A DNA stretch of 64,000 nucleotides from Escherichia phage AugustSocin: the sequence record MZ501052. The stretch is one strand, 5' to 3'. The notes below the pieces were generated by a model. It saw nothing but the letters and a program-made list of their open reading frames with translations. It searched no databases and was not told where the DNA came from. Below, piece after piece: positions 17,610 to 27,827 of this stretch; position 1 is the stretch's first letter, and every line of letters starts with the position of its first letter. Both the position numbers and the translations under genes were made by a program.

Positions 17610-18113
17610 TTAATCTAAGGTAATAAAGCCTTTTAATTCGGCATGTGACTTGCGGAACATTACTTGATGCCCACCAATGATAACTTTATCTTCAGGTACT
17701 TCGTATACAGCGAGATAAAATCCTTTAGAAGCTAATTCTTCACGCTCTTCTCGTGTGAACCATCTCATCATATCATATTCACTAGCAAAAGCAAAATGAT
17801 AAAGAGCTATAAACCATCCTGGAATATAGTGATCTACGCCTACATATTCTTCTTTCTCAAAATTAGTATTAATTGCTATATTAGCATTTTTAACTAATAG
17901 TTTGTCTTCGTGCGGAAGAGGAATTCTTTTATTATCATTACTATGATGCATAAAATTAGGTCTGTCATAACCTACGTGTAATAACCACTCTTCGCTCCAT
18001 GAATCCATTATACTCCTGTACGGCGTTATTTGAACACAAAGATCTCGACGTATTGTTATAGCATCTTCATAATTAAGAATACTAAATGATGATTCAACAC
18101 GATAAATTTTCAT
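17610..18113 (-). CDS. hypothetical protein (about 167 aa)
   Basis: internal ATG (MKIYRVESSF...) with GAGGATAATAAA RBS; the track start lies inside the promoter. Confidence 0.5.
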   Translation of the reverse strand: MKIYRVESSFSILNYEDAITIRRDLCVQITPYRSIMDSWSEEWLLHVGYDRPNFMHHSNDNKRIPLPHEDKLLVKNANIAINTNFEKEEYVGVDHYIPGWFIALYHFAFASEYDMMRWFTREEREELASKGFYLAVYEVPEDKVIIGGHQVMFRKSHAELKGFITLD

Positions 18114-25511: not shown

Positions 25512-25681
25512 ACCACCTATTTCTGTAGGCGTAAACATTGCAGCATTCTTAGTTTTCCAAGTTGCTGCATCGGAAACTACATCAGAATAAGCTGCTACCA
25601 CCTATTTCTGTAGGCGTAAACATTGCAGCATTCTTAGTTTTCCAAGTTGCTGCATCGGAAACTACATCAGAATAAGCTGCT
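25512..25681. repeat. perfect 85-bp tandem direct duplication (2 copies) spanning the soc 3' end
   Basis: 25512..25596 and 25597..25681 identical on base-by-base comparison. Confidence 0.85.
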
Positions 25682-25830
25682 TTTTCTGACGGAAAGATTT
25701 GATAATGAGAATCTGCAATACGGTGTTCATTTGAATATACATCAAATGCTACAGAAACTTCCATACCTTTAACTTCTTTGCCTTCACCTGCTGGATGAGT
25801 AAAGGTCTTGATGTTAACGAAACCACCCAT
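25582..25830 (-). CDS. soc: small outer capsid protein Soc (divergent; C-terminus altered by the duplication)
   Basis: 82-aa ORF with VNIKTF, VSVAF and HYQxFPSEKAAYS blocks; AAGGAG RBS; late promoter upstream. Confidence 0.8.
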   Translation of the reverse strand: MGGFVNIKTFTHPAGEGKEVKGMEVSVAFDVYSNEHRIADSHYQIFPSEKAAYSDVVSDAATWKTKNAAMFTPTEIGGSSLF

Positions 25831-25861: not shown

Positions 25862-25869
25862 TATTTATA
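25862..25869 (-). promoter_or_regulatory. late promoter (TATAAATA) for soc
   Basis: plus-strand tatttata is the reverse complement of TATAAATA, about 30 nt upstream of the soc ATG. Confidence 0.6.
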
Positions 25870-26011: not shown

Positions 26012-26530
26012 TTAATAACCTCGGTCCTGACGAGCAAAGTTCTCGGCATTTTTCAGATAATAAAGTTTAAAGATTTCTTCTGCTGTAAGACCAAGACCTT
26101 GGAACATGTTCAGAACGAAATGGAGAATATCAATCATTTCAAACTTAATTTCCAGTTGGTCTTGTGGAGACAAATCAGTAATCAGAGTTTCACGACGTTC
26201 ACCATGCTGCGACTTCCAAGGTTTCCATACAGCAGATGCGTCTTTTTCACCATTACTCATACCACCAAGAGAAGTTAGAAGTTCACGGAATTCATCGTCA
26301 ATATAATCTTTCTGATTACGCAACCAATCAACAACTTCACCGGCAGTAGCCAAATCATCAGGATGACGATTATATTCAGGTTTATCTTTAGCTAAACGAA
26401 TCTGCAGAGATTTCTGCATGTCAAGCATTACCTGCAGCGGGTCTTTTTCATCACCGAGAATATCCCAATATTCATTTTGAGCTTTATCAACACCTTCGAT
26501 CAAATGAGCACATTCATTAAAGTGAGCCAT
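26012..26530 (-). CDS. 56: dCTP pyrophosphatase gp56
   Basis: about 171 aa from MAHFNECAHLIEG; AAGGAAA RBS; MazG-like; the track ORF has a 31-codon spurious extension. Confidence 0.88.
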   Translation of the reverse strand: MAHFNECAHLIEGVDKAQNEYWDILGDEKDPLQVMLDMQKSLQIRLAKDKPEYNRHPDDLATAGEVVDWLRNQKDYIDDEFRELLTSLGGMSNGEKDASAVWKPWKSQHGERRETLITDLSPQDQLEIKFEMIDILHFVLNMFQGLGLTAEEIFKLYYLKNAENFARQDRGY

Positions 26531-26601
26531 TATTTTTCCTTTCAATTCATGGGTTAGTAGATTAATTATACAATAAATATATAAAGCAATAAGGAGGACA
26601 T

Positions 26602-26802
26602 ATGGTACAAAAATTAATGGCACTTGTTAATGCCATCAAAGGTAATAAAAAGCGTATAGCTTTTACTATTTCTGCTATGGTAGGAATTTTACTCTGGAAC
26701 TTTATTTTATCACCTGTTGCAATTGCACATGGTATTAATATTCCAGTAGTTACTCTTGATACGTTCGTAGATTTAGCATTTGCTTTAGTTGGGTTAATTT
26801 AA
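26602..26802 (+). CDS. hypothetical small hydrophobic protein (66 aa) on the plus strand
   Basis: strong AAGGAGG RBS 5 nt before the ATG; stop overlaps the gene 61 stop (convergent). Confidence 0.4.
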   Translation: MVQKLMALVNAIKGNKKRIAFTISAMVGILLWNFILSPVAIAHGINIPVVTLDTFVDLAFALVGLI

Positions 26803-27827
26803 ATCTTAGCATATTTAGATAGCCGCATTTTAGCCATCAACCCCTGTGCAATATTATTTTTCATATATTCCATAATTTGTTCAGGGGTTGCACCTTCCTT
26901 TCTAATCATATCATTAACATCTTTTGATTTCCAGGGAGATTTATCCCAAAACATAACCCTTTCTCCTGCATCAACTAATTTAGTCATTCGCTTAATAGTG
27001 TCAGGATGACGAGGTTCATTATCTAAAACCCACACACGTCTATCTTTAAATGGAACAACTTCTAGGTCTAATTGACCACCCGTAATAGCTATACCATTTT
27101 CAATAAAAAGTGAATCTATAGGTCCTTCTAGAACATATACATCACCATCTTTAACTCGTTCGACTCCATAGATTTTTGTTGCCTCAGGATAAGCTTTGAT
27201 GGTGATATATTTTTGAGGAGCATCTTTCTTTAATGCACGTCCTTGAAAAGACTCAGCTTTTCCATTAGCATTATAAATTGGAATAACAAGACGAGGCTCA
27301 GGTATTTCCTTTTTATATGTTCCTGGTGCTATGCTATTAACTAATTTAGGCCATTCAGTTGTAAACCAAAGATATTTCCATTTATCCTTTGGAATACAAC
27401 GAGCTTTTACATATTTTATAATTGGATGGTCTTCCGCCAGTTTATCTAATCTAACACATGACGGAAGAGATTTAATTATTTTCTTCTCAGGTTGTTTAGG
27501 AAGTTCTTTAGGTTTTTCTACTGGACGACTTTTACCTTTTTCTTTTCTTATTTCAAAGATATACTCACGATATAAATCGGGTTCAAACTCCTTTAAATAT
27601 ATTCCGATTGGTGCATGATAGTTACAGTTATAACAATGAATATTTCCTTCATTATTATCACCATAATACCATCCACGAGCTTTATTCTGATCGGTTTTTG
27701 AATCTCCACAAACAGGGCATCTAAACCGCAATTTAAAAGTTGAACTATTATTTACTTGTGTGAATTTAGGTAAATGAGCTAATGCACGATACGCAAACTC
27801 ATTATCAATCCAAGGTATTGATGACAT
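26799..27827 (-). CDS. 61: DNA primase gp61
   Basis: 342-aa ORF; N-terminal zinc ribbon (CPVCGDS...CYNCNYH) and Toprim region. Confidence 0.92.
   Translation of the reverse strand: MSSIPWIDNEFAYRALAHLPKFTQVNNSSTFKLRFRCPVCGDSKTDQNKARGWYYGDNNEGNIHCYNCNYHAPIGIYLKEFEPDLYREYIFEIRKEKGKSRPVEKPKELPKQPEKKIIKSLPSCVRLDKLAEDHPIIKYVKARCIPKDKWKYLWFTTEWPKLVNSIAPGTYKKEIPEPRLVIPIYNANGKAESFQGRALKKDAPQKYITIKAYPEATKIYGVERVKDGDVYVLEGPIDSLFIENGIAITGGQLDLEVVPFKDRRVWVLDNEPRHPDTIKRMTKLVDAGERVMFWDKSPWKSKDVNDMIRKEGATPEQIMEYMKNNIAQGLMAKMRLSKYAKI

Follow-up and report, generated by a model that had tools for sequence, protein, structure and literature searches.

For lysis and for the temporal control of genes, T4 serves as the reference phage. 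Its lysis proteins, the holin T and the antiholins RI and RIII, are small to medium-sized proteins located in, or associated with, the inner membrane. Holin T has a single N-in transmembrane helix and a large periplasmic domain, and the late-promoter motif TATAAATA is found just upstream of its gene, t. The late promoter of T4 consists of TATAAATA at positions -13 to -6, of which the commonest variant, A(-13), accounts for 9 of 50 T4 late sites (PMC2988020; PMC1524935). Late T4 transcripts of either polarity have been documented (PMC2988020).

The GTA-type three-transmembrane (3TM) holins (PF11351), which include the rcc00556 family and a protein of Rhodobacter phage RC1, are proteins of ~120-170 amino acids with three hydrophobic segments. 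It has been reported that the rcc00555-rcc00556 locus, encoding a putative lysozyme and a holin, is required for lysis and for the release of RcGTA (PMC3423380, PMC5026251). Type I toxin-like peptides of the Ldr and Hok types are short and hydrophobic, have a single transmembrane segment and are encoded opposite neighbouring transcripts.

The closest described relative of the ORF considered here is dam.1, the name under which it is annotated in T4T (HM137666, ADJ39749.1). Dam.1 of T4T, the family PHROG 2024 and gp16.1 of Gelderlandvirus S16 represent the same gene, with the same strand, length and position at the gene 61 stop; the T4T protein has ~97% amino acid identity to the one analysed. 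No paper on the dam.1 gene was found in the literature searched. In T4 and T2, dam lies upstream of dam.1, with or without a further gene of 186 amino acids, whereas in the DNA analysed gene 56 is the direct neighbour and its predicted promoter overlaps the region upstream of the ORF.

The window, the whole 64-kb stretch of phage DNA that was analysed, is part of a Tequatrovirus (T4-like) genome, with a best public match of 96.8% identity over 10 kb. The ORF (MVQKLMALVNAIKG...) extends on the plus strand from an ATG at 26602 to a TAA at 26800-26802 and encodes 66 amino acids. The features of the locus are listed below with their coordinates and strand.

26012-26530, minus strand: gene 56 (dCTPase), left neighbour of the ORF (phrog_173, E 1.9e-46)
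26565-26588, minus strand: predicted MotA-type middle promoter of gene 56, from consensus only; TGCTTTA (26588-26582), an 11-nt spacer and TATAAT (26570-26565)
26572-26579, plus strand: predicted late-promoter motif AATAAATA, matching the T4 late promoter TATAAATA at 7 of 8 positions, with A at -13
26591-26597, plus strand: Shine-Dalgarno (SD) sequence AAGGAGG, 4 nt (ACAT) before the ATG
26602-26802, plus strand, end including the TAA: dam.1-type CDS (PHROG 2024), probable small membrane protein of 66 amino acids (phrog_2024, E 1.4e-31)
26604-26639, minus strand: intrinsic-terminator-like hairpin, stem 26639-26614 with a TTTTTGT tail, within codons 5-13 of the ORF (-12.7 kcal/mol, z -2.7)
26799-26802, no strand: TTAA palindrome common to the convergent stops (TAA of dam.1 and TAA of gene 61)
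26799-27827, minus strand: gene 61 (DNA primase), right neighbour, convergent with the ORF (phrog_47, E 7.9e-107)

The initial annotation described a 66-codon plus-strand ORF inside the minus-strand 56-61 block, with a stop overlapping that of gene 61, and both are found at 26602-26802. The gene 61 stop is the reverse complement of 26799-26801, which gives an overlap of 4 nt with the stop of the ORF; the identical overlap is found in T4, Mosigvirus, Potts1, S16 and L029. The start had been placed at 26531, which is where the intergenic gap begins and not the ORF. The AAGGAGG motif is present as described, but its spacing was called ideal; the 4 nt between GGAGG and the ATG are functional but shorter than ideal, and the spacing in the T4 copy is 6 nt. 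It had also been stated that dam and gene 69, present in this interval in T4, are absent here. Neither dam nor segF (the old 'gene 69') was found in the whole 64-kb window, so the absence holds; the comparison with T4 does not, as in T4 gene 56 lies between segF and this interval. In addition, T4 carries both dam and the ORF, and the ORF is therefore not a stand-in for dam.

The length of the ORF by itself is not beyond chance and is uninformative, because the window contains 99 plus-strand ORFs of at least 50 amino acids. A strong SD precedes only two of these 99, the dam.1-type ORF and the gp38 gene (398-1177), and AAGGAGG occurs only twice in the 64-kb window. The GGAG(G) element is kept at all homologous loci. 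When combined with conservation, these signals are far beyond chance.

The gene is already catalogued, as PHROG 2024, as a CDS in hundreds of GenBank records and as dam.1 in T4T. Residues 2-66 of the protein align to positions 1-65 of the 65-position PHROG 2024 profile, which also matches all 19 diverse members of the family alignment (A3). A tblastn search with the protein reached 692 phage records, of which 686 had at least 80% protein coverage. At a minimum of 90% identity the ORF was found in 502 records, the same number as match the 3′ part of gene 61, and it is therefore present in essentially every Tequatrovirus of the collection. Annotation as a hypothetical protein is found in AR1 (ar1_033), SA21RB and hundreds of Tequatrovirus records. 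The T4 reference, NC_000866, contains an ORF of identical type between dam and 61, at 17738-17938 (NC_000866.4; L003 3239-3439), without annotation. This copy is intact, with 97% identity to the window protein. The CDS is also missing from the annotation of AF158101, MT984581 and KJ477684-6.

The order of gene 56 (minus), ORF (plus) and gene 61 (minus) is kept in Mosig-, Gapriver-, Gelderland- and Jiaodavirus, in Klebsiella phage Potts1 and in metagenomic T4-like contigs. Homologues in the same place and on the same strand have ~50-57% identity in Mosigvirus and Gaprivervirus, and 27-36% identity in Potts1, Jiaodavirus JD18, Gelderlandvirus S16 (gp16.1) and the metagenomic contigs. The family comprises two subtypes, A and B, and some Gapriverviruses carry both in tandem. 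A single-sequence, word-indexed protein search recovered only relatives of at least 91% identity; the distant members required an alignment as query and a full profile search. The latter, over 1.84 billion representative proteins, gave 16 hits, all of 33-70 amino acids, with the common motif W-N-[FY]-x3-P...G-x2-LP-x-[VI]-x-[LI]-[DE].

A number of arrangements were observed among these loci. The B-type paralogue follows the first copy in tandem and has no promoter motif of its own (L012 1701-1901; L018 and L019 2201-2401). In UPEC01 and Klebsiella phage SAKp28 the B-type copy is labelled 'DNA packaging ATPase', almost certainly a mis-annotation. The second copy is degraded in the Gapriverviruses DK-13 and TH40 (L010 and L011, downstream of 1692), and in DK-13 a homing endonuclease is inserted before gene 61. 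A third arrangement places the 186-aa gene between dam and dam.1 (L008 1841-2401, minus strand; also T2, Lutter and slur03-type records); as it adjoins a methyltransferase, it may be asked whether it encodes a restriction-like or nuclease partner. Outside the T4-like phages, distant members occur at L027 129-1383 and L026 2553-3749. One lies directly upstream of a 352-aa RelA_SpoT-domain protein. Another belongs to a contig resembling a temperate siphophage, where an Endonuclease VII gene and a minor-tail-like gene flank it and a serine recombinase is nearby. One database 'homologue', P0114 (MVFVNVIKGNKKCIVFIIFVMVGILFWNF...), shows the changes A>V, T>I, P>L, H>Y and S>F along its whole length relative to the T4 protein. 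Such a pattern marks a contig assembled from bisulfite-like reads, in which C has been converted to T, so that P0114 is an artefact and not a variant.

That the ORF is a real, conserved coding gene is close to certain, as two opposing explanations of the open frame show when set against the comparative data. The frame could be open by chance within a region conserved for minus-strand elements, such as the 3′ UTR or terminator of gene 61 or the promoters of gene 56 or dam. A terminator-like hairpin and a middle-promoter-like site do lie within or beside the ORF on the minus strand, 99 plus-strand ORFs of at least 50 amino acids arise by chance in the window, and the T4 reference record leaves the ORF without annotation. 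The substitutions are nevertheless frame-specific. Within Tequatrovirus the Nei-Gojobori dN/dS is 0.12-0.2 for most pairs, and within Mosigvirus 0.07-0.16; variable sites at codon positions 1, 2 and 3 number 8, 2 and 13 in Tequatrovirus, 7, 0 and 13 in Mosigvirus and 13, 4 and 11 in Gaprivervirus. Values of 0.24-0.73 in Gaprivervirus suggest a weaker constraint in that genus, and between genera dS is saturated, with a dN of ~0.4. The frame stays open at ~27-57% amino acid identity in at least six lineages, without conservation of the nucleotide sequence or the hairpin, and W32, N33, P38, G44 and P48 are invariant amid hydrophobic positions that vary freely. These comparative data effectively refute a chance frame, which is extremely improbable.

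The initial annotation had offered two readings, an antisense-encoded membrane peptide or the coding remnant of a replaced segment. For a pseudogene decaying since the loss of dam, it can be said that dam and segF of T4 are missing from the window, and that the upstream motif of the ORF directly adjoins the junction with T4-homologous sequence. The same ORF is intact in dam-bearing T4, though, and is full length in 686 of 692 records under purifying selection, while the degraded B-type copy of some Gapriverviruses illustrates what decay at this locus looks like. On its presence in T4 and on dN/dS the remnant was rejected, its probability being smaller still than that of a chance frame. The membrane peptide is the reading that is supported, by purifying selection, deep synteny, a conserved module of promoter and SD, and a predicted transmembrane helix. 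Two of the checks put forward with it, comparison of the 56-61 interval across T-even phages and transmembrane prediction, gave an ORF kept in place and strand in several genera and a single predicted transmembrane helix, respectively. Taken as a whole, the best explanation, held with good confidence, is that dam.1 (PHROG 2024) is a genuine protein-coding gene in reverse orientation within the early 56-61 block.

The signals upstream of the ORF point to expression late in infection. From the motif at 26572-26579, transcription is predicted to start at ~26585, leaving a leader of 17 nt. Matches to WATAAATA are depleted about five-fold in the window (5 sites against 24.4 expected), and of these five, one precedes soc and one precedes holin t. 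In 9 of 10 lineages the ATAAATA core precedes the ATG by 12-33 nt, against a background of ~0.005 per 30 nt; the exception is S16, with only TATTAAATA upstream of the ORF. The first base of the 8-mer is A, G, C or T depending on the lineage. An 8-bp plus-strand promoter is annotated at the equivalent place in the record of phage Lutter. Promoter motif, SD and ORF behave as one module whatever lies upstream, be it gene 56, dam, or dam with the 186-aa gene. Because the core is kept in nine of ten lineages despite its depletion in the window, gp55-dependent late transcription of the ORF, antisense to the early block, is likely.

Perfect copies of the late motif occur elsewhere in the window. A plus-strand late block at its start contains a glycine-rich, 259-aa gp38-type adhesin (398-1177), a perfect TATAAATA at 1196-1203 and holin t (1211-1882, an ORF of 223 amino acids). 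On the minus strand, a perfect TATAAATA at 25862-25869 lies just upstream of soc (25582-25830), in keeping with the known late expression of this small outer capsid protein.

Signals of opposite direction are packed closely at the locus. The spacer of the predicted gene 56 promoter is the complement of the plus-strand late motif, and the promoter fits the T4 middle pattern GCTT(N13-15)TATAAT quoted in the SA21RB record. Some 33 bp (26565-26597) thus contain the late-promoter core and the SD on the plus strand, and the MotA box and -10 element for gene 56 on the complement. This packing suggests possible interference between middle and late promoters. The minus-strand hairpin at 26604-26639, for which the record of phage SA21RB has a terminator annotation, probably terminates or attenuates the transcripts of gene 61. 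The hairpin is confined to Tequatrovirus and is not kept in Mosigvirus, Gaprivervirus or Potts1, for which reason it cannot explain the conservation of the ORF. On the plus strand, no intrinsic terminator was found for 3.2 kb downstream of the ORF, so late RNA should run antisense into gene 61.

Dam.1 is highly likely to be a membrane protein. Its Kyte-Doolittle hydropathy peaks at ~2.0 over residues 19-41, and an AlphaFold2 model from a 23-sequence alignment (mean pLDDT 78) places helices at 2-12, 16-42 and 52-63. In this layout a basic helix at the N-terminus is followed by one membrane-spanning helix and then by a short, acidic helix at the C-terminus. The five basic residues all lie before the hydrophobic helix, and after it come only the acidic D53 and D57, a charge pattern that holds across the whole family; a single-pass inner-membrane topology, N-in and C-out, is predicted on this basis. 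No Pfam or NCBIfam family matched the window protein even at E 10, and PADLOC gave no matches. Searching PDB sequences with the family profile, and PDB and BFVD with Foldseek, returned only family members or insignificant matches; one BFVD match bears the name 'Holin', with no evidence stated for the name. Matches to Ldr-toxin, MASE7, Syndecan and Mlo at E 0.02-0.13 were rejected as hydrophobic noise.

Profile comparisons indicate that Dam.1 is weakly but specifically similar to the C-terminal module of the GTA-type 3TM holins. Three family members (P0109, P0115 and P0119) matched the same C-terminal region of PF11351 (GTA_holin_3TM) at 13.6-15.3 bits, below the gathering threshold of 24.8 bits. 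P0119 also matched PHROG holin family 3427 (E 5e-4), and P0113 and P0116 matched PHROG holin family 11161 (E 0.012-0.065). A tblastn search with P0119 reached weakly to the 'GTA-like holin' of phage Pan1 and to the PF11351-type protein of phage RC1. A GTA 3TM-holin alignment was built from RC1 and Rhodobacter capsulatus-type proteins and compared as a profile. In hhalign, A3 matched it with 83% probability (P 8.7e-6); the match covers 41 columns, all in the C-terminal module, and pairs family positions 24-64 with holin positions 111-152. The real score was 34.8, and none of 200 column shuffles or 200 within-segment shuffles scored above 20.1; with T4-like members alone the probability drops to 54%. 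The shared core has the same order in both, namely a transmembrane helix with W-N, an LP(P)xP loop, an acidic residue and a short hydrophobic helix ending in G-L.

In other respects Dam.1 differs from these holins. At 66 amino acids it is much shorter and lacks their ~100-residue N-terminal part; in place of three hydrophobic segments it has a single transmembrane helix, followed by a short helix at the C-terminus. Among the features by which holins are recognised, small size and at least one transmembrane helix are present in Dam.1; the hydrophilic, highly charged C-terminal tail is absent, as the protein ends in ...DLAFALVGLI, without basic residues and with only D53 and D57 as acidic ones. 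Nor is there an endolysin partner in a lysis cassette at the window locus, where the neighbours are the dCTPase and the primase. This last feature carries little weight in T4-like phages, because t and e of T4 are themselves unlinked. Near the non-T4 members P0117, P0119 and P0120 lie genes for tail or unknown proteins, for a RelA_SpoT protein and, at a distance of 1.5 kb, for a lysozyme, with no clear lysis cassette.

Compared with the lysis proteins of T4, Dam.1 has no detectable sequence similarity. It shares with holin T a single N-in transmembrane helix, predicted in the case of Dam.1; in the window, t together with its TATAAATA occupies 1196-1882. Only ~24 residues of Dam.1 extend beyond the membrane, in contrast to the large periplasmic domain of T. 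The type I toxins resemble Dam.1 in size, hydrophobicity and orientation to neighbouring transcripts, and one family member matches Ldr_toxin at E 0.1, which is insignificant. Dam.1 does not have their antitoxin-RNA architecture, and its strong SD and predicted late promoter point to programmed expression and not to repression.

The following course is proposed for the expression and action of dam.1. Late in infection, RNA polymerase with gp55 would start near 26585, directed by the ATAAATA-core promoter at 26572-26579, and the ORF would be translated from the short leader with its strong SD; the coding type of evolution is observed, and translation is proposed. The product is predicted to enter the inner membrane with its basic N-terminal helix in the cytoplasm, residues ~19-42 spanning the membrane and its acidic C-terminal helix, with D53 and D57, in the periplasm. 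It may then oligomerise in the membrane and influence envelope integrity or the timing of lysis as an accessory to holin T, which is speculative. Such an oligomerising role is proposed because W32-N33, P48, D53 and G64-L65 form a core similar to the final transmembrane segment, loop and helix in the GTA 3TM holins. The late transcript would continue antisense into gene 61.

A holin-like or lysis-related role of Dam.1, to which the profile matches point, is the preferred mechanistic guess but is held with low confidence. The fuller version, in which T4 and nearly all T-even phages encode a second, miniature holin-like protein related to the GTA holins, expressed late to tune the timing of lysis, lysis inhibition (LIN) or permeabilisation of the envelope alongside T, with a transcript that is also antisense to the primase message, is doubtful. 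A late membrane microprotein with no part in lysis has a somewhat less than even chance; it might serve a membrane function in superinfection or defence, take part in membrane-associated head assembly or modulate a host membrane protein. This would agree with a holin similarity that is sub-threshold for curated models, with the missing charged tail and endolysin neighbour, and with the presence of the canonical lysis genes elsewhere, holin t being in the same window. The majority of microproteins of this size in bacteria and phages exert their effect by binding to larger membrane proteins. Against such a role, holins are the only characterised family for which a specific similarity was found, while the PADLOC and PDB searches offered nothing significant in its favour. 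Dam.1 is at least as likely to have some other membrane role as a holin-like one. The main function could also be exerted by the RNA, the late antisense transcript silencing gene 61 and neighbouring early messages with the peptide being secondary. The overlapping stops and the 3.2 kb without a plus-strand terminator lead read-through antisense to gene 61 to be expected, and late transcripts of either polarity have a precedent in T4. Silencing by the RNA does not account for conservation at the amino acid level, for the presence of a strong SD in all lineages or for A and B paralogues in tandem, and as the main function it is very unlikely. The protein and antisense RNA roles are not mutually exclusive.

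The finding of a conserved dam.1 protein-coding gene is correct but largely ordinary, and does not represent a new kind of system. What is added here is the annotation gap in the T4 reference, the conserved place of the gene across genera of the Tevenvirinae, the conserved late-promoter core and the weak C-terminal likeness to GTA holins. This universally conserved gene is missing from the annotation of the T4 reference NC_000866, and omics data mapped to that annotation are blind to it. If the link to the GTA holins reflects function, the lysis system of T-even phages would have an uncharacterised component, one that is simple to test genetically; if the link is without function, dam.1 would join the other conserved microproteins of phages. 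In both cases the practical result is a correction to the annotation.
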